Assembly: GCA_013378385.1 (NCBI GenBank)
Contig: JACAFS010000016.1
Coordinates: forward strand, 1-19,128
DNA from: Nitrososphaerota archaeon
GTDB lineage: Archaea; Thermoproteota; Nitrososphaeria; Nitrososphaerales; UBA57
Direction of reading: 5' to 3'
Length of the DNA: 19,128 bases
The notes beneath the pieces are model-generated. The model did no database searches. It had not been told where the DNA came from and was given only the letters and a program-made list of their open reading frames with translations. Shown piece by piece: positions 3 through 19,128 of the stretch. Position 1 is the first letter of the stretch. The number at the start of each line of letters is the position of its first letter. The position numbers and the translations under genes are program-made.

Positions 3-422
3 AAGATAATTCGTCCAACGGGGTATTATTCATTAAAAGCGAATAGAATAAAGAAGACTTCTAAACGTCTTGTAAATGTATACAATTCAAAAGTTCCTGA
101 TAATATGGAAGATTTATTGACCTTGGAAGGTGTTGGTAGAAAAACAGCAAATATTGTACTTTCAGTAGCATTCAAGAAGACCCAAGGAATAGCAGTAGAT
201 ACACACGTAAAAAGACTAAGTAACAGGTTAGGACTTACGGAAAATTCCAACCCAGAAAAGATTGAAATTGATTTAATGAGGAACTTAAAGAGAGAAAATT
301 GGGATAAATTTTCAATATTATTAATATTACATGGAAGGAAGATTTGTAATGCCCGTAAACCAGATTGTAATAATTGTTTGTTAAATGATTTGTGTCCATA
401 CTTTGAGGCTAAGAAAAAATAG
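3..422 (+). CDS. nth: Endonuclease III (HhH-GPD base-excision DNA glycosylase/AP lyase), 5' end cut by the window edge
   Basis: The frame is open from base 3 (KIIRPTGYYSLKANRIKK...) and runs into the listed ORF 105..422. It has the helix-hairpin-helix block LEGVGRKTANIVL and AVDTHVKRLSNRLG. The C-terminal 4Fe-4S motif C-x6-C-x2-C-x5-C reads CNARKPDCNNCLLNDLC. Confidence 0.88.
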   Translation, partial: KIIRPTGYYSLKANRIKKTSKRLVNVYNSKVPDNMEDLLTLEGVGRKTANIVLSVAFKKTQGIAVDTHVKRLSNRLGLTENSNPEKIEIDLMRNLKRENWDKFSILLILHGRKICNARKPDCNNCLLNDLCPYFEAKKK

Positions 423-1326
423 ATGAATTAACTATATCTGAATAATTAATGGAGGGGCTAATTAGATTTCTTTGTGACATCCAAGAATATATTTCATTAA
501 AAGTATCTTCAGGATATTCTTGCCAAGGTTCCCAAGAAGGTATAGAGATATCAGATATATTTTGATTAATTATTTTTTGTTGTTCTAATGAGAATTTATT
601 TATGATAAACTGAATTTTATTAATATAAAAATCTCTTATGTCATCAGGATGATCATTGATATATTGAATTGATTTGTTTGTGGCTCGAATAAATGATTTA
701 ATGTGATCAGTCTCAAGGTCATTGCGAGAAATCATCAAGGTTCCTTTTCTTCTTGTAGATTCCATCAATTTATTTAAACCAAGAGACACTGCAAATTCAC
801 AATATACACCCAAAAGACTAGATGCAGAAGTTTCCTCATTCAAGGTTGACAATAATCTTTCATGAGGATCGCCAAGTTTTAGGAAATTTGAATCATCTAC
901 AGGAAAATACTTTTCTAAATCTTCAATCGCAGTATAATAAGAACCAGTTGATGCCTCCACTGCAATTTTCTTATTTGCAAGTTGTTTAGGATTAGAAAAA
1001 TTAGGTCCAACATATAGTCCAAAACTTCCATTGATAGCAGATTCACTCCATGGAGAATAACAAACAATTTTAGAATCTTCACTTTCGACCACTCGGGATA
1101 GAGATACATATTCAGCAGCATGATAAAAATCAGACAAATTTTTCTTTTGTAGGTCCATGTACATTTGACTTTTGCTTTGTACTTTGCCAACAGGAGTTAC
1201 ATTGTTTACTTTAATCTTTAGATTTTCGTCTTCATAGAATCCATTTTCTATACCAATTAATTCAGGTAAAGACCAATAAAATGCATAATCATTGATACTT
1301 AGATTAATTAGGGTTGAAGTTTCCAT
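409..1326 (-). CDS. Hypothetical protein with an SsuA/NMT1/THI5-like periplasmic-binding-protein type-2 fold; no signal peptide
   Basis: 305-aa ORF. Its pattern resembles nitrate/sulfonate/bicarbonate-type binding proteins (KKIAVEASTGSYYTAIEDL; C-terminal ...IKSFIRATNKSIQYINDHPDD). There is no N-terminal hydrophobic segment. The family call is by eye only. Its 3' end overlaps nth by 14 nt. Confidence 0.45.
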   Translation of the reverse strand: METSTLINLSINDYAFYWSLPELIGIENGFYEDENLKIKVNNVTPVGKVQSKSQMYMDLQKKNLSDFYHAAEYVSLSRVVESEDSKIVCYSPWSESAINGSFGLYVGPNFSNPKQLANKKIAVEASTGSYYTAIEDLEKYFPVDDSNFLKLGDPHERLLSTLNEETSASSLLGVYCEFAVSLGLNKLMESTRRKGTLMISRNDLETDHIKSFIRATNKSIQYINDHPDDIRDFYINKIQFIINKFSLEQQKIINQNISDISIPSWEPWQEYPEDTFNEIYSWMSQRNLISPSINYSDIVNSSIFS

Positions 1327-7049: not shown

Positions 7050-8096
7050 TTAGACTCCTGCTATTTCTTTGAATATAGTAGTCCACTCAGCGTGATTGGC
7101 TCGTGCTGCATCACTTGGGTATCTAAGAAGATCCATACCTGCAGGAGCGGCAGCTCCAATAGTATGCTTTGTTTTACCTTCAACTGATGGTAAAGCTGCG
7201 AATCTTACATCGACATTACCAATCAATATTTGTGCTTCTTCACTAACCAAGAAATTAATCCATACTTTTGCTGCGTCTGGATTCTCAGATGCTTCAAGGA
7301 GTACGGCTGCAGTTGGACCCCACATCAATGGGAAATCTTCTAATTGAAGTATTCCGACAGGTGCTCCGTCCATTTGTGCCTTTACTACATCATGGAATTG
7401 ACCTACAATACCAATGTGATATTCACCACGTGAGACTTCGTCTGTTTGTGCGCCGGTACTGCGTTGTCTTACAGGTTGTACATTAGCTTCCAGTCGAGTT
7501 AGGAAATCAATTGTTGCTTCTTTACCAAGGGATTCTTCTGCAATAGTAGCCCAGATTCTTGTAGAGGTTGTACCTCTTGAGTAATCATGCATTGTAATTT
7601 TACCGTTCCATTTTGGATCAGTAAGGTCGTTCAATGTTTTAGGTAATTCATCTTCTGAGATAAGATTTGTATTATAAGTAATTACTTGACCAAGTAAAAG
7701 AACGCCTTGCCAATATCCATCGGGATCTTTTAGTTCGTCAGGCCAATTAGCTGCATTTGGTGCTTGGTATGGTTGTGCAAATCCATCATCTACCAAAGAT
7801 AATGAACCAGGAAAACTGAGCATTACTACATCAGCTGTTTTTGCTCCTGCGTCAATCTCAGTAGAGATTCGAGTATAGACCTCGGAAGGAGAACCTCGAA
7901 CATAATCGATTTTTATATCTGGGTAGGCTTCATGAAATGCGTCAATAGTTGTTTGCATATCTTCTGCATCGACACTTCCATAAACCAATACGGTGCCCGA
8001 ACCTGATGGTCCGCTATTGAAAAAAGTTAAACCTGCTACTGCAAGAATTGCTATTGCAACTACTGCAACTAACAGATTACGATTCTGTGCTAACAT
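7050..8096 (-). CDS. Extracellular solute-binding protein, Fe3+-type (SBP family 1 / AfuA-FbpA-like), N-terminal membrane anchor or signal
   Basis: 348 aa. The N-terminus MLAQNRNLLVAVVAIAILAVAGLTFF is followed by a GPSGSG linker. The mature domain starts TVLVYGSVDAEDMQTTIDAFHEAYPDIKIDYVRG. The ligand is unknown. The gene is visibly more GC-rich than its neighbours. Confidence 0.7.
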   Translation of the reverse strand: MLAQNRNLLVAVVAIAILAVAGLTFFNSGPSGSGTVLVYGSVDAEDMQTTIDAFHEAYPDIKIDYVRGSPSEVYTRISTEIDAGAKTADVVMLSFPGSLSLVDDGFAQPYQAPNAANWPDELKDPDGYWQGVLLLGQVITYNTNLISEDELPKTLNDLTDPKWNGKITMHDYSRGTTSTRIWATIAEESLGKEATIDFLTRLEANVQPVRQRSTGAQTDEVSRGEYHIGIVGQFHDVVKAQMDGAPVGILQLEDFPLMWGPTAAVLLEASENPDAAKVWINFLVSEEAQILIGNVDVRFAALPSVEGKTKHTIGAAAPAGMDLLRYPSDAARANHAEWTTIFKEIAGV

Positions 8097-8161
8097 ACCT
8101 GAGATTAATGTAAATATTTATATCTGTACCCTGTTAGAATTATTATAACAACAGTGAATAG

Positions 8162-8974
8162 GTGATAAAATTAGAGACTGCAAGTAGTAAACATCCACAT
8201 GTAAAGAAAGGAAGGGTTAGAGAGAATATAATCAACCAATTATCTCAGCAGCCATATTCATTGACGGACCTTTCTAGAATACTAAAGGTATCAAAACCAA
8301 CCATAAGTTATCATTTAACTAATTTAATCAAAGATAGCATAATTGAAATTTCTGGAACCAAGAGTGGAAGAGGAGGATTTAGATCAAAACTTTATGTGTT
8401 AAAACATAATTTAGACAGTACGCTCCCAAGTTCATCTTCGGATTCGCATTATCTAGATTTATTATCAGGAATATTTGAGAGTAATAAACTAGAATGGTCC
8501 GTAGAAAAAAATAATAAACTAGGTAAAGACATACAATTATTCCTATTTCATGTATTCAGGCTATTGAGAAATGTTACAAAGACAAGACATCATGACATAC
8601 TAAGAAATTATGGAAAGAGGGTAGGTAAAGAGGTAATTGCTAAAAAATTTAACAGTAATTTAAAAGATAATTTAAATGGATTATCGGAATTTTTTGAAGA
8701 AAATGAGATAGGAAATATTAAAACAATATTAAGTGTTGAAAAATATCATCCGCAATACAAGTTCCAATGTTTAGGGTGTTTTCAAGCAAGGGAAAATGGA
8801 GGTCCTGTTTGTAATTTTACAAAAGGGATGATTGAAGGATTTCTAGAATATAATTATGGCGATAGATATGAAATTGGAGAAAGGCAGAAAGATGGAACGT
8901 TATATGAATCATGTGTATTCCCCATGAGAAGAACAAAAAAACGCGGAAGGGCAGAAGCAATAAATATTGGATGA
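8162..8974 (+). CDS. Transcription regulator: ArsR-type winged HTH fused to a C-terminal V4R (4-vinyl-reductase-like small-molecule-binding) domain
   Basis: The HTH reads YSLTDLSRILKVSKPTISYHLTNLIKDSIIE. The C-terminus CLGCFQARENGGPVCNFTKGMIEGFLEYNYG...YESCVFPM fits the V4R cysteine/glycine pattern. The start is GTG, immediately after an in-frame TAG, and there is no nearby ATG. Confidence 0.65.
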   Translation: MIKLETASSKHPHVKKGRVRENIINQLSQQPYSLTDLSRILKVSKPTISYHLTNLIKDSIIEISGTKSGRGGFRSKLYVLKHNLDSTLPSSSSDSHYLDLLSGIFESNKLEWSVEKNNKLGKDIQLFLFHVFRLLRNVTKTRHHDILRNYGKRVGKEVIAKKFNSNLKDNLNGLSEFFEENEIGNIKTILSVEKYHPQYKFQCLGCFQARENGGPVCNFTKGMIEGFLEYNYGDRYEIGERQKDGTLYESCVFPMRRTKKRGRAEAINIG

Positions 8975-8975
8975 T

Positions 8976-9680
8976 TTATTCTTTTAAAACATAAACAGAA
9001 TGAATTGAATCAAACATGGACCAAAGTATATCCTCAGTAAACAATACAGAATCTACTGCTTTTAGTTGCATTTCATAAGAATCAGCATATTTCACAACAA
9101 TATTGAAAGCTATTTGGCTGTCTTTCCGAGCTTGGGCAGATAAGGACATAAAATAACCGAGTCCGTTAGGGTCGATAAAATCTCCATAATGTTTAGACAA
9201 GGCATAAACACGTTTATCGATTGCAGCTGACAAGAATAGTTGATTAAGGGAAGTTGAAATTCCCTCAAACCAAGAATGTGTCTTAACATAATTTAATAAT
9301 GAATCAGATGCAATACGTACACCTGGCAAATAATTATCTAAATATAATGATTTTTTATTCATACCTGTTGATTCGGCGAATTTAATCCATCCTTGTATAG
9401 CGCCTTCAGATTCTGAATAACCGTCGTATTCCAGTATTCGTGAAATCCAAAGCCTACGAACGTCAGATAAAGGGCAATTAGAAATCACAGCGCCGTCTTT
9501 CAATGGAATCATATTTTGATAATAGAACCAATTAGTGATCCAACCATGTATTTGAGTTTTGTTTAGTTTCCCTTCGTATAAGAGCGTGTTAAATGGATGC
9601 TTATCAGGATAGCGTTTTTTTGCTTCGCTTTTGATTAGTGCAAGAAACTTGTTTCGAGGCAATGGTTTCTTGTTTGACAT
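8976..9680 (-). CDS. pqqC: PqqC-family protein (pyrroloquinoline-quinone synthase-like, heme-oxygenase-like fold) with a divergent substrate pocket
   Basis: Full-length by-eye collinearity with bacterial PqqC: QIHGWITNWFYYQNMIPLKDGAVISNCP..VRRLWISRILEYDG; LPGVRIASDSLLNY; SLNQLF; EDILWSMFDSI. I prefer the ATG at 9680. The ORF-track start at 9713 is a TTG. Confidence 0.75.
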   Translation of the reverse strand: MSNKKPLPRNKFLALIKSEAKKRYPDKHPFNTLLYEGKLNKTQIHGWITNWFYYQNMIPLKDGAVISNCPLSDVRRLWISRILEYDGYSESEGAIQGWIKFAESTGMNKKSLYLDNYLPGVRIASDSLLNYVKTHSWFEGISTSLNQLFLSAAIDKRVYALSKHYGDFIDPNGLGYFMSLSAQARKDSQIAFNIVVKYADSYEMQLKAVDSVLFTEDILWSMFDSIHSVYVLKE

Positions 9681-9760
9681 AGAAAAAATATAGGTAGAAT
9701 CTAATAAAAACAATACGTAATCAATATATTGGTTTACACTCTATTTAGAATCAATATCAA

Positions 9761-10060
9761 ATGAAGAGATTTTACTTTGTTTTAGGAGTGGTACTTGTGA
9801 TACTTAGCTTAGTAGTATATCAGTCAGTAATGGAACAAGTTAGAGAGTTTGAAGAGTTGTTAAGAACAGTAGAAGAAGCAGGGGCCGATGCAAGGATAGG
9901 AATAGAACGAGCGGGATTGGACATTCAACAGGCGGAAAATATTAACGCTCGAATAAATACTACAATGCTTGTAAGTAGAGGATTAGGCGGATTGGGCGCA
10001 TTCCTGCTTTTTTATTCAACGTATGAAGAATTAATAAAATTAAAAAACAGATTCATTTAG
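9761..10060 (+). CDS. Small two-TM membrane protein, unknown family (paralogue A)
   Basis: 99 aa. It has an N-terminal TM (FYFVLGVVLVILSLVVYQS), a charged middle segment of about 45 aa, a C-terminal TM (GLGGLGAFLLFYSTY) and the tail EELIKLKNRFI. Confidence 0.55.
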   Translation: MKRFYFVLGVVLVILSLVVYQSVMEQVREFEELLRTVEEAGADARIGIERAGLDIQQAENINARINTTMLVSRGLGGLGAFLLFYSTYEELIKLKNRFI

Positions 10061-10114
10061 AGTTATCTGTGAAACTAAAATAGACTAATTAATTGTGAGG
10101 GCACGTAGTGATAC

Positions 10115-10459
10115 ATGAGAAGGAGAGATCTAATATTAGGAATAATCTTTCTTTCATTAGGTTTTTTGTTATATCAATCAGCATCGAATCAGAATAATGA
10201 GATTGAAGAGTTTATCATAATAGAATTGGATGCAGGAAATTTAATTAAACAAATGTATTGTGTAGTAATGATCGATAATCAATGTGAAGTTAGAGATGTG
10301 GAATATGGAGGAATATTGATAGATGATCTTGATGAAATGATCGATCGAATGGACAATACAAAAGCAATGAGCAGGGTATCTTTTGTTATAGGGATATTTT
10401 TGGCATTATTTTCGATCAAGAAAGAGTTACTAAAAGTTAAGAATTACTTGTGGGATTAG
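10115..10459 (+). CDS. Small two-TM membrane protein, unknown family (paralogue B)
   Basis: 114 aa with the same architecture as the upstream gene: LILGIIFLSLGFLLYQS, an acidic middle with 2 Cys, the TM VSFVIGIFLALFSI and the tail KKELLKVKNYLWD. Confidence 0.55.
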   Translation: MRRRDLILGIIFLSLGFLLYQSASNQNNEIEEFIIIELDAGNLIKQMYCVVMIDNQCEVRDVEYGGILIDDLDEMIDRMDNTKAMSRVSFVIGIFLALFSIKKELLKVKNYLWD

Positions 10460-10460
10460 A

Positions 10461-11468
10461 TTATTTTTTTAAGACTTTATCGACGTCGGTATTAAATGCC
10501 TCGTCGGTTGTAACATGATTTTTAAATAAATTTTGGAATAATTGTCTATCCTTATCAGTATTATTTATTACATCGAGTGATGGGAAAATTGAGTATTTTT
10601 CATTTGGCAATATATTGGAAATCGAGTATTTAGAATCGGATTCTATATAGGCTGGAACTCGGATGTAGTTATTGCCAATCATATTCTGGCCTTCTTTGGA
10701 GAGTATATAATCAATGAATAATTTAGCAGATTCTAGATTACTAGAAGTCTTTAGTATAGAGGCGACAGTAGCGGAGATGTATAAAGGAATATCTGAAAGA
10801 ATGAGTCTCTCAATAGGAAGGTTCTTGTCTTTTGCACGAAGATATTCATAAAACATAACTGTAAGACCGATATCGCTTTTTCCAAGACTGACACTGCCGA
10901 GAACGTGTCTGAATAATGGCCAAAGTTGTAAATTTTGATGTGAAAGTAGATTTATGAAGCGGCTCCAATCGATGCCAGTCAAATTACTACGAAGAGAAGA
11001 TATCCAATTACTTCCAAATGTTCCAAGAGTTATGTCATGTATAGATATACGGTTTTTCCATCGATTGTCAAGTAGATCTTTAGAGCTTGTAGGAACCTCG
11101 TCAACATCAATAAGTTCACGATTGTAGATTTGCATAGTAGGTAAGAGTACGACGGATGTCCAGAATCCTTCTGAATCTTTGAATGACTCGGGAATATTAC
11201 GTCTTTCGGGAGAGTTATAAACTTGAAATAAGTCTTGATTTTGCATCTGTAAATGTGGAGAAATTGCACTCAGAACTATATCTGCGGACGAACCGGTGTT
11301 TGATAAATCATGTGTAATTTGTGTAGACATGGGAGGAGGCGTTCCGTATACATATTTACGCAAGTATTCAATTTTGATGTTTGGATGAACTTTATTGAAA
11401 CCAATTATCCAAGAATCGAATTCCCAGGTTTCGATTGTGCCATAAATAATTAGTTTATTATTACTCAA
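10461..11468 (-). CDS. Fe3+-type SBP-fold protein without signal peptide; paralogue of the 7050..8096 product
   Basis: 335 aa. It aligns by eye with the other SBP: LIIYGTIETWEFDSWIIGFNKVHPNIKIEYLRK vs LVYGSVDAEDMQTTIDAFHEAYPDIKIDYVRG; FKDSEGFWTSVVLL vs LKDPDGYWQGVLLL; RWKNRISIHD vs KWNGKITMHD. The TTG start overlaps the upstream TGA (TTGA). An in-frame TAA two codons upstream rules out a longer N-terminus. Confidence 0.65.
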   Translation of the reverse strand: MSNNKLIIYGTIETWEFDSWIIGFNKVHPNIKIEYLRKYVYGTPPPMSTQITHDLSNTGSSADIVLSAISPHLQMQNQDLFQVYNSPERRNIPESFKDSEGFWTSVVLLPTMQIYNRELIDVDEVPTSSKDLLDNRWKNRISIHDITLGTFGSNWISSLRSNLTGIDWSRFINLLSHQNLQLWPLFRHVLGSVSLGKSDIGLTVMFYEYLRAKDKNLPIERLILSDIPLYISATVASILKTSSNLESAKLFIDYILSKEGQNMIGNNYIRVPAYIESDSKYSISNILPNEKYSIFPSLDVINNTDKDRQLFQNLFKNHVTTDEAFNTDVDKVLKK

Positions 11469-13255
11469 TTTTTAATCCTACGTCTAGTTACTATTGTAGC
11501 ATAGATTAGAGATACAAGAGTGATTGCAAATAATAGATAATCGTAAGATGATTCAGAAGATTCATCAACTGACATAGAGACAAGGATGCCAGGATTATTG
11601 CCAGTTAATGTGCCGCCTCCCATTGGAAACACAACCATCATTGAGCCTTTTGCATCAGCGCCAATAGAAGGACCCGCAGAACCCATTGAATTGAAAGGTA
11701 TGGAATTAAGGATTGTTCCATCTTCTATGTCGATAGCATAGAATATCCCACTGCGATCTATTGAATACAATACATCGGCACTTACAATTAGAGAAGCGCT
11801 TTGTATTCGATCGGGGATAGTTATTTGCCATTTTAATTCAGAAGTAGATAAATCAATAGCGTATATAGAACCATTTGTTGGTCGATCTAGATCAAGACGG
11901 TATACATAGCCGTCAATAACTTCTCCCTTGTATTCTAACTGTCTTGTAAGAACAGTTCCACAGACATTCTGAGATGGGATATATGCAACGTTATCAGCAA
12001 CAGACATTCCAGCAAATACACCGCCTAATTGACTAGGGCAAAATATTTCGCCGACATACTTGGTTTGGGATGCATACATATCGGATTGATTTTCAGTGTT
12101 TTCGTTTGTTAGATTATAACTTTCTGGACCAAAATGTATAGGCTTGTGAATTAGATCTCCAGTGAGAGCATCTACTACATACAAATAATTACTTTTTGAA
12201 GCAGCAATGATTGCTTTACGGTCTACGTCATTTACAGAAATAGTCGTATAAACAACTTTCCAACCGGGATCATTATTATTGATATCATGAGTGCTCATCT
12301 GGTAATACCATTTTAGAGTTCCAGAATTTATATCAAGTGCAACAATAGAGCTTGAGAACAGATTAGGGCCAGGACGGAGAGCTGCGTCAAATTGATTTGC
12401 AGGTTCGCCTGTCAAAAGAAACAATGTTTCAGATTCTTCGTCAATTGCAACTAATCCCCAAGATGTACCTCCAGCAATATAATTAGTATAGCCCCAATCA
12501 TTTTCAAATGGTAGAATATTACCCAATTTTGCTTCGTCGTATCCCCAGTTTAATTCACCACCTGCAGGTGGGGAAGAAAACCACTGCCAAACTAACTCTT
12601 TAGTTTCTAGATCATAGGCAGACACATATCCACGTCCGCCGAATGCATTTCCCTGTGCCCTAGTTATTAGAAGATTATTATAAAAAGTAGGTGCAAATGG
12701 AGAGAAATATTCGCCGTTATTTCCAGGGATATTAGAACACGTTTCGGGTAATTCGAATACTACATCACCGGTTATTAAATCGAGGCCGTAGATAGAACAT
12801 TCGCTAGTCTGAACATAAACAGCGTCTTCATGTATTGTAAGTGATCTCATAGCAAGTCGTTTTGCCCAAACTTCAGTATTCTTAAAATCATTAATATCAG
12901 GTTTAAAAGACCATAACGGACTACCATCCATAGCATCAATTGCATAGACTTCATTGTAACCAGTTGCGACATATACAATTCCTTGGTAAATCAATGGAGT
13001 AGTCTGAATTCCTTCGGGAGGAACTATATCATCGTCTAGAGGTTCTACACTATCGAATTGATAAATCCAATTAAGTTCTAAGTTTTTAACATTATCTTTT
13101 GAAATTACGGTTTGTGGGCTAAAACCTGTATTGTACTTATCAAATGCAGAATACTTCCAATCAAAGACACTTTCCGAACTCACAGTAGAGATATTACCGA
13201 CAAATAATAAGAATATTAAAAAAGTTAATAGCTTATACAATAGACTTCTAAACAT
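11465..13255 (-). CDS. PQQ-dependent dehydrogenase-like 8-bladed beta-propeller (quinoprotein family), secreted, with C-terminal TM tail anchor
   Basis: Family blocks: FSPQTVISKDNVKNLELNW; EGIQTTPLIYQGIVYVATGYNEVYAIDAMDGSPLW; GGRGYVSAYDLETKELVWQW; GGTSWGLVAIDEE..LFLLTG; IVALDINSGTLKWYYQMSTHD. The signal peptide is MFRSLLYKLLTFLIFLLFVGNISTVSS, from the ATG at 13255. A longer ORF starts at the ATG at 13300. The C-terminus is YLLFAITLVSLIYATIV-TRRRIKN. Confidence 0.75.
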   Translation of the reverse strand: MFRSLLYKLLTFLIFLLFVGNISTVSSESVFDWKYSAFDKYNTGFSPQTVISKDNVKNLELNWIYQFDSVEPLDDDIVPPEGIQTTPLIYQGIVYVATGYNEVYAIDAMDGSPLWSFKPDINDFKNTEVWAKRLAMRSLTIHEDAVYVQTSECSIYGLDLITGDVVFELPETCSNIPGNNGEYFSPFAPTFYNNLLITRAQGNAFGGRGYVSAYDLETKELVWQWFSSPPAGGELNWGYDEAKLGNILPFENDWGYTNYIAGGTSWGLVAIDEESETLFLLTGEPANQFDAALRPGPNLFSSSIVALDINSGTLKWYYQMSTHDINNNDPGWKVVYTTISVNDVDRKAIIAASKSNYLYVVDALTGDLIHKPIHFGPESYNLTNENTENQSDMYASQTKYVGEIFCPSQLGGVFAGMSVADNVAYIPSQNVCGTVLTRQLEYKGEVIDGYVYRLDLDRPTNGSIYAIDLSTSELKWQITIPDRIQSASLIVSADVLYSIDRSGIFYAIDIEDGTILNSIPFNSMGSAGPSIGADAKGSMMVVFPMGGGTLTGNNPGILVSMSVDESSESSYDYLLFAITLVSLIYATIVTRRRIKN

Positions 13256-13361
13256 AGAATAGAGCAATAAAGCTTCACAATAATGAGAAAAATAATTCAT
13301 TTTTGGGTAACTAAAGCAATTTTTCTAAAGAAAGTGTGTATTGGAAGTAAAATTAGATTTA

Positions 13362-14087
13362 ATGAACAAGATTAATTGTGGAGATACCCTAGATTTAATG
13401 AAGAATATAGAGTCAAATTCGGTACATCTAGCAATAACGTCGCCGCCGTACAATGTAGGAAAAGACTACGACAGTCACAATGATTTAATGGAATATGATG
13501 AATATTTGAACTGGTTAACAAAAGTTTGGATTGAGACAAAGAGAGTATTAATAGATGGAGGAAGATTTGCATTAAATGTAGGTCCTACAGGAATAAGAGA
13601 TTTCAGGCCTTTGCATCATGACTTGTCAAACAGATTAAGAGAAATCGGAATGATATTCAGAACAGAAATTTTATGGTATAAACAAACAATGTTGAAAAGA
13701 ACGGCATGGGGAAGTTGGAAGAGTCCAAGTAACCCGCATATAATTCCATCATGGGAATATGTATTAATTTTTAGCAATAATTCCATGAAATTAGAAGGAG
13801 ACAAAACAAAATCAGATATTACAAGAGATGAATTTCTCAATTTCTCCGATGGTCATTGGAACATATTACCTGTTACAAAAAATAGAAAAGGGCATCCTGC
13901 ACCATTTCCAGAAGAATTGATCTACAGATTAATAAAATATTATTCGTACGAAGATAATACGATATTAGATATGTTTGGAGGAACTGGTACTGTTGCTTCA
14001 GTTGCTACAAAAAATAACAGGAACTTTATACACATAGATATATCTGAAGAATATTGTGAAATTGCATCTAACCGAATAAAAAAATAG
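13362..14087 (+). CDS. DNA methyltransferase, beta-class N4-cytosine/N6-adenine family (PF01555-like), no adjacent endonuclease
   Basis: Motif IV (AITSPPYN) comes early. HPAPFPEELIYRLI and then motif I (LDMFGGTGTVASVA) come late, which is the beta-class order. I prefer the ATG at 13362. The ORF-track start at 13341 is a TTG. Confidence 0.8.
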   Translation: MNKINCGDTLDLMKNIESNSVHLAITSPPYNVGKDYDSHNDLMEYDEYLNWLTKVWIETKRVLIDGGRFALNVGPTGIRDFRPLHHDLSNRLREIGMIFRTEILWYKQTMLKRTAWGSWKSPSNPHIIPSWEYVLIFSNNSMKLEGDKTKSDITRDEFLNFSDGHWNILPVTKNRKGHPAPFPEELIYRLIKYYSYEDNTILDMFGGTGTVASVATKNNRNFIHIDISEEYCEIASNRIKK

Positions 14088-14088
14088 A

Positions 14089-15114
14089 TTAAGATTGAAT
14101 TGCTTTAATTGTGTTTTTCCACCAATAAGACATCTCAGGTGACATGTTAGAGTCAAATGGAAGATAGAAATTAATACGATCCAACAGGCCAGAATATTTT
14201 TTTATGGCAAGAGGGGCAATTTCGTTAGGAGTGCCAATTATTGCAACAGTTTCAAGAATTTCATCAGTAATTAGTTTAGGCATGTCCTTAAAGTTACCAG
14301 AAGAAGACAATCGATTAAGTTCCTTGGCAATGTCGCCCCAACCATGCGTCTCAAGCACCTTAGAATATGTAGGGGTGGATGAATAGAATGCAATCTGTGA
14401 TCGAACAAATTCCCTGGTTTTTATCATTGAATCAGAATCAGGACCGGTAATAACGAAGGCAGATCCGCTTATTGAAACGTCTTTAATATTGCGATCGTGA
14501 GATTCGCAGCCAATTTCAATATTTGGAATAATAAAATCTTCTATGTATTCTTTAGTATGCAAAGGATGAACATGAAAACCATCACATACTTCCCCTGCGG
14601 CTTTACATAGCGATTCATTTACACCAGCAATATAGATAGGGATGTTAGGATGGTCTATAGGTCCAGGATTAAAGAAAGGAGTCATAAGATTTAGCTTATA
14701 ATAATTTCCATTGAAATTCAAGGGAGTTTGAGTTTGCCAACAATCCCATATGTGGCGAATGCAAGAAATTATTTCCTTGAGTTGAGAAACAGGAGAATCC
14801 CAGGGCATTCCGAATCTTCTTTTTACATGAGATCTTACCTGTGTACCAAGACCTAAAAAGAATCTTCCGTTAGAAAGCTGTGATAAATCCCAAGAAGTAT
14901 AAGCAAGAACCATCGGACTTCGTGCCAATGCAACAGAAATAGCAGTACCTAATTTAATTTTATTTGTATTTTGAGATGCAATGGAAAGAGGAAGAAAGGG
15001 ATTATGTTTAGTTTCACTAGTCCACATACAATTAAAACCAATTTCCTCAGCAGCGATAGATAATTTAGAAATATCATTAATCGAATAATCAGCAAAAACG
15101 ACGTCAATATCCAT
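14089..15114 (-). CDS. Luciferase-like monooxygenase (LLM) class oxidoreductase, probably F420-dependent
   Basis: 341 aa with a TIM-barrel LLM pattern: LSIAAEEIGFNCMWTSETKHNPFLPLS, LGTAISVALARSPMVLAYTSWDLSQLSNGRFFLGLGTQV and IYIAGVNESLCKAAGEVCDGF. Confidence 0.7.
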   Translation of the reverse strand: MDIDVVFADYSINDISKLSIAAEEIGFNCMWTSETKHNPFLPLSIASQNTNKIKLGTAISVALARSPMVLAYTSWDLSQLSNGRFFLGLGTQVRSHVKRRFGMPWDSPVSQLKEIISCIRHIWDCWQTQTPLNFNGNYYKLNLMTPFFNPGPIDHPNIPIYIAGVNESLCKAAGEVCDGFHVHPLHTKEYIEDFIIPNIEIGCESHDRNIKDVSISGSAFVITGPDSDSMIKTREFVRSQIAFYSSTPTYSKVLETHGWGDIAKELNRLSSSGNFKDMPKLITDEILETVAIIGTPNEIAPLAIKKYSGLLDRINFYLPFDSNMSPEMSYWWKNTIKAIQS

Positions 15115-15160
15115 TAAGGAACAATAAATCTAATTGAATATAAAAAATAAGGACAATAAT

Positions 15161-15175
15161 TCGTCGTGTATAGTT
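15161..15175. other. 3' half of the 23S rRNA precursor processing stem
   Basis: tcgtcgtgtatagtt is the exact reverse complement of aactatacacgacga at 18266..18280. The two halves bracket the whole 23S. Confidence 0.7.
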
Positions 15176-15199
15176 TTTACGTGGTATAGAAATGAACAT

Positions 15200-18245
<3,046 letters not shown>

Positions 18246-18393
18246 CATCTCTATACGCTATACGCAACTATACACGACGATAATTGTGTTAAACACTACG
18301 TCCTTCACTCTTCAAGATCTTTGAAGAGTTGCATCTAAATATGACATCTTGAAATTTTTAGTCAAAACTGTACTCCCTATCACTATTTATTCT
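18246..18393 (-). other. 16S-23S internal transcribed spacer without tRNA
   Basis: About 150 nt lie between the 16S 3' end and the 23S 5' end. I found no cloverleaf-capable segment or T-loop consensus. It contains the 23S stem half at 18266..18280 and a 9-bp hairpin (actcttcaa-gatct-ttgaagagt) at 18307..18329. Confidence 0.7.
18266..18280. other. 5' half of the 23S rRNA precursor processing stem
   Basis: Exact 15-nt complement of 15161..15175. Partial complementarity continues on both sides (acaat at 15153..15157 with attgt at 18283..18287). Confidence 0.7.

Positions 18394-19128
<735 letters not shown>

Follow-up and report, generated by a model that had tools for sequence, protein, structure and literature searches.

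Does a pqqC-like gene that stands apart from any pqq operon mean that its host makes pyrroloquinoline quinone (PQQ)? The question is raised by a 19,128-nucleotide stretch of archaeal DNA (contig JACAFS010000016.1 of assembly GCA_013378385.1; hereafter the window), in which the gene of a PqqC-like protein lies among those of two solute-binding proteins (SBP1 and SBP2), a regulator, two small proteins with two transmembrane segments (2-TM) and a quinoprotein-type propeller. These seven genes, proposed by a first-pass annotation in the interval 7050-13300, are all real at their coordinates (Table 1), as judged from open reading frames (ORFs) and from Pfam and NCBIfam profiles. The PqqC-like protein is a PqqC by fold, but not by the stricter tests of profile score and residues. 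It belongs to a core, conserved in relatives, that also comprises a convergent V4R regulator and an SBP/ATP-binding cassette (ABC) importer, while SBP2 and the propellers are frequent but dispensable. The quinone cofactor of the host group probably does not come from the bacterial pathway. The cluster is tentatively read here, at somewhat less than an even chance, as a conserved 'quinoprotein support' cluster of Nitrososphaeria, which would take up a compound related to PQQ and convert it in the cytoplasm, to the benefit of tail-anchored quinoproteins.

The contig belongs to the heterotrophic marine Thaumarchaeota (HMT, pSL12-like). The protein cluster of its PqqC-like protein is named 'PqqC [Thaumarchaeota archaeon]' or 'Nitrososphaerales archaeon' in the sources and is frequent in Tara and deep-ocean assemblies, one member being carried by the bathypelagic fosmid AD1000-325-A12. 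HMT genomes encode 4-19 highly expressed PQQ-type dehydrogenases and a single 'PQQ synthase' (Aylward & Santoro 2020, PMC7300363), and the gain of pqqC is placed at the ancestor of the quinoprotein-rich mesophilic clade of Thaumarchaeota (Sheridan et al. 2023, PMC10640624). The literature assumes that HMT make PQQ because they carry 'pqqC'. Under this assumption, the PqqC-like protein would be a genuine PQQ synthase catalyzing the last de novo step, the earlier steps being encoded elsewhere in the genome or performed by non-homologous archaeal enzymes; remaining pqq genes at other sites of the genome were also one of the first-pass options. The annotation of pqqC (K06137) in HMT and other Thaumarchaeota speaks for it, as do the cofactor requirement of so many expressed quinoproteins and the placement of the pqqC gain. 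Nevertheless, it is considered quite unlikely, in view of both the gene neighborhood and the protein itself.

As regards neighborhood, all 78 bacterial-type loci (taken among the matches listed in a genome scan, which were mostly bacterial, with three archaeal loci and no close HMT genome among them) carry at least one of pqqB, pqqD, and pqqE beside pqqC, with all three present in 69, whereas none of these genes lies within 10 kb in any of 19 archaeal loci, window included. Twelve of the latter were scanned by BLAST and seven, among L090-L099, by their Pfam content (PqqB-, PqqD-, and radical-SAM-type domains). Profile and homology searches of the whole window returned no pqqB, pqqD, or pqqE homologue. 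The strict PqqA motif appeared in no archaeal locus, in a weak scan that found it in two of six positive-control bacterial loci. The local absence of pqqA/B/D/E claimed at first pass is supported for pqqB, pqqD, and pqqE; for pqqA, the motif scan is too weak to carry weight. At the genome level, pqqC is the sole entry under PQQ synthesis in the curated HMT metabolic table (PMC7300363 Data Set S4), and K06137 is found without K06135, K06136, K06138, or K06139 in that table and in the examined portion of the orthologue table; the supplements of the 2026 HMN paper contain no pqq gene table. HMT genomes span about 1 Mb, and other cofactor pathways have been lost from them. An 'ordinary pqq operon fragment' is ruled out at the locus level, and the conclusion drawn in print, that HMT 'can likely produce the cofactor', therefore stands on weak ground. 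A metagenomic locus (L009, 1-6236) carries a bacterial-type pqq cluster, in which a soluble glucose dehydrogenase (GSDH) gene lies between pqqB and pqqC and PqqD is fused to PqqE.

As regards the protein, its AlphaFold2 model (predicted local distance difference test, pLDDT, 94.6) adopts the seven-helix PqqC fold, and the top Foldseek match is the closed, PQQ-bound PqqC of K. pneumoniae (1OTW), with a template-modeling score (TM-score) of 0.93 and a sequence identity of 34%. The folds of CADD, UndA, BesC, and TenA are far more distant. In sequence searches, PqqC is reached with an E-value of 1e-45 versus 1e-7 for CADD, the CADD model giving 43 bits against a cut-off of 200. Residues Y23, H27, K60, R74, R80, R157, and Y175 (K. 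pneumoniae numbering) are retained. Fold, identity, and retained residues all agree with a genuine synthase. The PqqC equivalog model TIGR02111 points the other way, since it yields 215.7 bits and its curated cut-off of 240 is not reached; relatives of the window protein score 236-240 bits. The first-pass placement of the 8976..9680 product in the PqqC family, thus, holds for superfamily and fold, while membership in the strict family is not supported.

The residues are more telling. In an alignment of the PqqCs from the 78 bacterial-type loci with 13 archaeal sequences, H24, R50, E147, R179, and K214 are conserved at 100% in the operon-encoded proteins. Neutral or hydrophobic residues take their place in the clade of the window protein: P or Q at position 24 (H in one member), W at 50, Q at 147, L at 179, and T, M, A, or S at 214. 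The window protein itself shows H24->P, R50->W, E147->Q, R179->L, and K214->T, along with H84->Y and Y128->L, two additional changes of the HMT subclade. Among the nine operon-PqqC pocket residues compared (H24, R50, H84, Y128, E147, R157, Y175, R179, K214), R157 and Y175 are, therefore, the ones kept. H24, R50, and K214 are taken here to be contacts of the PQQ carboxylates in the PqqC-PQQ structure. The titles of Protein Data Bank (PDB) entries designate R179 (3HNH) and Y175 (3HLX) as active-site residues, and the PqqC cavity is described as positively charged, with a segment 170-187, including R179, that coordinates the C7' carboxylate (PMC2294125). Residue importance was judged from these sources and from conservation in the 78 operon PqqCs. 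The conversion of four cationic pocket residues to neutral or hydrophobic ones argues for a substrate less acidic than AHQQ.

What surrounds the gene in relatives gives a second line of evidence. Over 10 distinct archaeal contexts, the V4R regulator and an SBP_bac_6 protein each neighbor the PqqC-like gene in eight, and a propeller lies within 10 kb in seven. Synteny, which the first pass proposed to check, is maintained for five of the seven families in relatives down to about 50% identity of the PqqC-like protein. Lineages are designated below by the identity of their PqqC-like protein to that of the window. Within the same species (L001-L004), gene order is identical. The 68% lineage (L005-L007) has, in order, a luciferase-like monooxygenase-type (LLM) oxidoreductase, a DNA methyltransferase (MTase), propeller, SBP2, PqqC-like, V4R, SBP1, and a GDP-mannose-dehydratase-like enzyme (GMD), and no 2-TM genes; propeller, SBP2, and PqqC-like genes are co-directional in L006/L007 and separated by 2 and 44 bp. 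In the 76% lineage (L094/L095), the order is LLM, one 2-TM gene, PqqC-like, V4R, SBP1, and GMD, and propeller, SBP2, and methylase are absent. The 56% lineage (L098/L099) shows two propellers, a 284-aa membrane protein, PqqC-like, V4R, SBP1, a permease, a 373-aa membrane protein, GMD, and leuDCA. The 55% lineage (L010, Thermoproteota archaeon XB_MAG1178) carries propeller-SBP2-PqqC, V4R, a second PqqC/CADD-like gene, a second signal-less SBP, SBP1, and a permease, with GMD further on. At 50% (L092, GCA_036477975.1), an MTase is followed at some distance by propeller, PqqC-like, V4R, a signal-less SBP, an anchored SBP, a permease, a second PqqC/CADD-like gene, GMD, and leuDCA. At 43% (L011), a propeller stands about 3 kb off PqqC-like and V4R. 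At 38% (L047, Ca. Caldarchaeum), PqqC-like, a weak V4R homologue, an SBP, a permease, and an NMT1-like gene are found, with an ABC ATPase nearby. At 44-45% (L008, L090), the PqqC-like gene is solo, beside a gene for a 64-66-aa 2-TM protein.

Two kinds of paralogues extend this picture. The second PqqC/CADD-like copies within the cluster (L010, 3069-3776; L092, 15928-16638) score 122-152 bits on TIGR02111 and 88-98 bits on CADD, with a Haem_oxygenas_2 match in the L092 copy; that of L010 is paired with the second signal-less SBP, and the window lineage has lost this paralogue. A second thaumarchaeal PqqC-like subfamily, nearer to canonical PqqC, bears the signature HMDRK at the five positions; by such signatures, three thaumarchaeal subfamilies are distinguished (xWQLx, HMDRK, and xRERx). 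In L096, the HMDRK gene lies between a propeller and a signal-less SBP with an ABC ATPase; another propeller follows about 3.7 kb on, and major facilitator superfamily (MFS) transporters belong to the same neighborhood (7999-16216). The genome concerned (GCA_024860875.1, Nitrososphaerales) has two PqqC-like genes, the solo window-type one (L090) and this HMDRK one.

These arrangements also bear on a somewhat unlikely, though substantial, alternative, namely that the PqqC-like, V4R, and SBP/ABC core has nothing to do with PQQ and imports and transforms another anionic nutrient, a vitamin fragment, or an acid product of the dehydrogenases, the propeller being a neighbor by inherited synteny. The core occurs without propeller in L094/L095 and L047, and the PqqC-like gene alone in L008 and L090; its orthologous group is reported from 51 Thaumarchaeota genomes. 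The altered pocket implies a substrate other than AHQQ, the ligands of SBP relatives include phosphonate, pyridoxal 5'-phosphate (PLP), and sugar phosphates, PhnU2 is the best match of the permease, the L010 and L092 paralogues score on CADD and Haem_oxygenas_2 models, and an NMT1/THI5-like protein recurs nearby. However, PqqC remains by far the nearest relative, TenA being only a distant fold match. In addition, the seven contexts out of ten with a propeller within 10 kb include the independently arranged second subfamily, flanked by two of them, the propeller, SBP2, and PqqC-like genes are tightly co-directional, and the first two are start/stop-coupled. Linkage of PqqC-like genes to both ABC-importer parts and quinoproteins, in two subfamilies and several arrangements, makes uptake and conversion of a PQQ-related compound the best explanation.

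The two SBPs differ in their topology signals. The ABC-importer SBP domain is present in both SBPs, which share 29% identity (E 9e-48). A hydrophobic N-terminal segment (residues 1-30), and, thus, an anchor, is seen in SBP1 only; SBP2 has no hydrophobic segment. The start of SBP2 overlaps the stop of the propeller gene by 4 nt (TTGA), in agreement with the overlap noted at first pass, which leaves no place for an upstream extension or an upstream signal peptide. In L006, L010 (two copies), L092, and L096, no more than about 1 kb, and no gene other than that of the regulator, separates a signal-less SBP gene from a PqqC-like one. As every lineage with the SBP2 type has such signal-less copies, the cytoplasmic location is conserved and is not a start-codon artefact. 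SBP1 beside the regulator is kept in L094, L006/7, L098, L010, L092, and L047. In four of these (L010, L092, L098, L047), it is directly followed by a fused ABC permease (double BPD_transp_1, 491-573 aa) of FbpB-like architecture, best matched by PhnU2 (178-184 bits, cut-off 593); in L096, an ABC ATPase follows the signal-less SBP. No ABC permease or ATPase homologue is encoded in the whole window. The earlier statement that the locus has no transporter genes is, thus, correct for the window, but not for these four relatives.

The SBP genes are called 'iron(III) transport system substrate-binding protein' in the sources, and SBP1 and SBP2 could be ordinary parts of a ferric-iron ABC uptake system beside unrelated genes, as annotated by the Joint Genome Institute (JGI). 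The closest solved relative of SBP1 is indeed a Thermus ferric-binding protein (TtFbpA, 1e-23), and the fused permease resembles FbpB. The di-tyrosine Fe3+ site is, however, absent, with 'GQFHD' in SBP1 and 'MFYEY' in SBP2 versus 'YHYY' in 8K7N, so that the 'Fe3+-type' label given at first pass stands at the family level and not for the iron site. SBP2 lacks an export signal in any lineage, and its closest solved relative is the PLP-binding P5PA (6WCE, 2e-13). Among NCBIfam models, both SBPs are nearer to PhnS2 than to iron binders, far under the cut-offs (SBP1 on TIGR03261, phnS2: 102.8 bits versus 392), and the SBP genes stay linked to those of the PqqC-like protein and the V4R regulator as far out as Caldarchaeales. 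To judge from their sequences, neither SBP appears to be a classical iron binder; Fe3+ uptake was rejected as main interpretation on account of the missing di-tyrosine site and the cytoplasmic SBP2, and is held to be very improbable. Among solved structures, neither showed homology to a PQQ-binding protein.

The propeller, the presumed beneficiary, is itself unusual. It has a hydrophobic, signal-like N-terminal helix and a C-terminal transmembrane helix (residues 581-610). Its AlphaFold2 model (pLDDT 89.4) is an eight-bladed propeller, of which the best 30 PDB matches are all PQQ-dependent alcohol dehydrogenase (ADH), methanol dehydrogenase (MDH), XoxF, or PedH (TM-score about 0.7), the best folds being quinohemoprotein ADH, XoxF, and MDH. 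The score on PF01011 passes the cut-off of 26.7 bits, while that on TIGR03075 (225 bits) is below its cut-off of 480. Residues were read from an alignment with the quinohemoprotein ADH 1KV9 and bacterial homologues. In the propeller and its orthologues, PQQ-contact residues are retained at the aligned positions of W232, the Arg of 'NRG' ('TRS' here), and K322. In contrast, the metal-binding E173 and N250 are changed to A and E, the catalytic D295 to N, and the vicinal Cys-Cys to W-A; D297, two residues past D295 and corresponding to a lanthanide-type position, is retained ('HDINNND'). The first-pass call of a PQQ propeller at 11465..13255, thus, is supported by PF01011 and by fold, but neither by TIGR03075 nor by the canonical metal and catalytic residues. 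The pattern is kept in orthologues down to 54% identity, for which reason the active site looks rearranged rather than decayed. The missing Cys-Cys agrees with the published description of HMT PQQ-type dehydrogenases as divergent proteins with signal peptide and TM segment and without this motif (PMC7300363).

The regulator always converges on the PqqC-like gene, 1 bp separating them in the window. It matches V4R weakly, at 21.2 bits with a cut-off of 31, and its best NCBIfam match is MsvR (NF053755, 89.6 bits versus 220). Orthologues occur in L094, L006, L098, L010, L092, and L011, with a weak one in L047. The V4R part contains a C-x2-C...C...C motif, of the same kind as in MsvR-type redox sensors, which is kept in six aligned Nitrososphaeria orthologues and absent in that of Caldarchaeum.

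The 2-TM pair had been put forward as the only membrane component in sight. It is, instead, an insert particular to certain lineages and missing from those at 68%, 56%, 55%, and 50%, some relatives of the window encoding the PhnU2/FbpB-like permease. The two proteins are paralogous (28% identity, E 5e-8) and, like the other small neighbors, have no family match in Pfam or NCBIfam. A single full-length homologue of the first (9761..10060) lies at the same position in L094/L095, with 41% identity, and none was found in L005-7, L010, L092, or L098; conservation at this level in two HMT lineages indicates real genes, though not core ones. Gene callers have split this homologue into two short overlapping ORFs (L094, 1462-1801; L095, 1471-1810; tblastn 1761-1471), and it alone separates the LLM gene from the PqqC-like gene in the 76% lineage. 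Unrelated to these proteins, a conserved 64-66-aa two-TM hairpin is encoded at the same relative position, divergently upstream of solo PqqC-like genes (L008, 6589-6789; L090, 9717-9911; L091, 2975-3169; all on the minus strand).

In the favored reading, SBP1 would capture an extracellular anionic PQQ-related compound (PQQ, a derivative, or a late precursor), which an ABC permease would import; the latter, encoded after SBP1 in four relatives, is not found at the window locus. SBP2 and the PqqC-like protein, a homologue of a cofactor-less oxidase, would bind and convert the compound in the cytoplasm, and the product would serve the secreted, tail-anchored propeller or propellers. The four-cysteine, MsvR-like helix-turn-helix (HTH)-V4R regulator would control the set, perhaps by sensing the quinone or the redox state. 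Presumed in this scheme are the identity of the ligand, the way and sequence in which the steps run, and the use of the product as propeller cofactor. It accords with the finding that many bacteria with PQQ enzymes import PQQ instead of making it, by means of PqqU and PqqT (PMC12124388). Among the options raised at first pass, salvage of an imported compound and use of a different cofactor are preferred to ordinary PQQ synthesis, because five invariant PqqC residues are lost and the partners are ABC-importer parts.

Several considerations weigh against it. The ligand assigned to its components is a putative one, and members of the SBP family bind Fe3+, phosphonates, sugar phosphates, and PLP as well. 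Quinoproteins are extracellular, so that imported PQQ would need re-export, and for mere scavenging of PQQ, import would be superfluous. Neither permease nor ATPase is encoded at the locus in the window lineage, L094/L095 keep PqqC-like, V4R, and SBP1 while having lost propeller and SBP2, no propeller is near in L047, and the PqqC-like gene stands alone in L008 and L090. The report of the PqqC orthologous group in 51 Thaumarchaeota genomes suggests that the role may be more general.

A bolder version is improbable, but would be of consequence. Mesophilic Thaumarchaeota might obtain or finish a PQQ-like quinone unlike PQQ (for example, with fewer carboxylates), starting from a precursor imported by an ABC system and using a cytoplasmic SBP-fold partner together with a re-tooled PqqC-like oxidase, the quinoproteins having co-adapted through E173->A, N250->E, D295->N, and loss of Cys-Cys. 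If true, this would be a new cofactor-maturation route, possibly for a new quinone cofactor, behind highly expressed enzymes of globally abundant deep-ocean archaea.

Table 1. Coordinates (nt) of the features of the window, with strand and main characteristics.
Feature	Coordinates	Strand	Characteristics
Signal-less NMT1/THI5-like SBP-fold protein	409..1326	-	Pfam NMT1 weak, 21.3 bits
SBP1, exported, N-terminally anchored, Fe3+/PhnS2/AfuA class	7050..8096	-	SBP_bac_6 E 3.4e-22
ArsR-type HTH + V4R regulator, MsvR-like, four cysteines	8162..8974	+	HTH_5 E 2.6e-10
Orphan PqqC-like protein, cytoplasmic, heme-oxygenase-like seven-helix fold	8976..9680 (ORF extends to 9713)	-	234 residues; PF03070 84.5 bits
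Small membrane protein, first of tandem pair	9761..10060	+	N-terminal TM segment; divergent from PqqC-like gene
Small 2-TM protein, second of tandem pair	10115..10459	+	Hydrophobic segments 5-24 and ~83-108
SBP2, signal-less (cytoplasmic) SBP-fold paralogue	10461..11468	-	SBP_bac_6 E 1.1e-16; translationally coupled to propeller
Eight-bladed quinoprotein-type propeller, secreted, C-terminally tail-anchored	11465..13300	-	PF01011 173 bits
Orphan N6/N4 DNA methyltransferase (MTase)	13341-14087	+	Flanks propeller gene
F420-dependent LLM oxidoreductase	14089-15114	-	TIGR03617 415 bits, over cut-off; flanks propeller side
23S rRNA gene	15198-18241	-	
16S rRNA gene, 3' part	18395-19128	-	

The window, with a G+C content of about 33%, is archaeal. 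The rise from about 33% to about 47% at its end is due to the rRNA genes (15198-19128, minus strand); no tRNA gene was found in the rRNA spacer or in the rest of the window. Apart from the MTase and the LLM oxidoreductase, whose order is the same in the 68% lineage, the other genes encode a partial endonuclease III, the NMT1-like protein, ilvH, leuA, leuC, leuD, and GMD. The NMT1/THI5-like protein has a homologue in the Ca. Caldarchaeum locus (10608-11528, minus strand; 32% identity, E 1e-57), directly after the ABC permease, and another in L096 (3787-4683; 43% identity), at a distance of about 5 kb from the PqqC-like gene of the second subfamily. As it recurs close to a PqqC-like gene in three genomes that are very far apart, the module may include this protein too. 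Thiamine or pyrimidine salvage, combining a TenA-like enzyme, a thiamine-type ABC importer, and this NMT1/THI5-like protein, was considered and not adopted as main interpretation: no TenA structure was matched by sequence at E 0.001 or better, and by fold they are distant matches (TM-score 0.62-0.75), while PqqC is matched at 1e-45.

HMT archaea abound in the dark ocean, and their PQQ-type dehydrogenases are among the top-expressed genes and are thought to drive energy metabolism (PMC7300363). With a 'pqqC' that is an orphan, has an altered pocket, and sits among importer parts, where the cofactor comes from and what it is become directly testable questions. HMT may depend on PQQ or derivatives made by bacteria, which would be a new cross-feeding link, they may have a non-canonical archaeal route, or their cofactor may be a modified one. 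A practical caution is that archaeal matches to K06137 should not be read as 'PQQ synthesis'.

Part of this is already published. The first-pass annotation knew of no described operon type with this combination; this needs amending at the organism level, as HMT quinoproteins with a lone 'PQQ synthase' (PMC7300363) and the pqqC gain (PMC10640624) are on record. The divergent quinoproteins, their number, the missing Cys-Cys, the single pqqC, and its gain in mesophilic Thaumarchaeota, thus, belong to these papers. The orphan status, the altered pocket, the PqqC-V4R-SBP-permease cluster with a cytoplasmic SBP paralogue, and the second subfamily with the same partners were not found in the searchable literature.

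Compared with the bacterial pqqABCDE(F) operon (PqqC = EC 1.3.3.11), the archaeal loci share a PqqC homologue of the same seven-helix fold, often near a PQQ-type dehydrogenase, and several bacterial loci of the scan likewise have a quinoprotein near the pqq genes. They differ in that pqqB, pqqD, and pqqE are absent nearby, no strict PqqA motif being found either, and in that a V4R regulator, SBPs, and, in some, an ABC permease are the partners. The CADD/heme-oxygenase-like diiron oxidases are matched by the PqqC-like paralogues of relatives, whereas the window protein is clearly nearer to PqqC. The propeller resembles the 'acido-empty-quinoprotein group A' (TIGR04528), with 182 bits, but far below the cut-off of 650. 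The genes of the SBP-fold accessory proteins MxaJ and XoxJ adjoin those of methanol dehydrogenase, and an SBP-fold gene likewise lies here directly beside a quinoprotein propeller gene; MxaJ and XoxJ, however, are periplasmic and form part of another SBP family, while SBP2 lacks an export signal and goes with a PqqC-like gene. The HMT studies (PMC7300363, PMC10640624) deal with the same organism group and the same genes, but their accessible parts take pqqC as evidence that the cofactor is made, and do not report the missing pqqA/B/D/E, the altered residues, or the cluster. Finally, bacterial PQQ scavenging, with its TonB-dependent PqqU and periplasmic PQQ-binding PqqT (PMC12124388), offers the likeness of a cofactor acquired externally with a dedicated binding protein or transporter, and without full biosynthesis. 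The archaeal system differs from it by an ABC-type SBP, by a host that has no outer membrane, and by a cytoplasmic SBP2 and a PqqC-like protein for which plain scavenging has no need.

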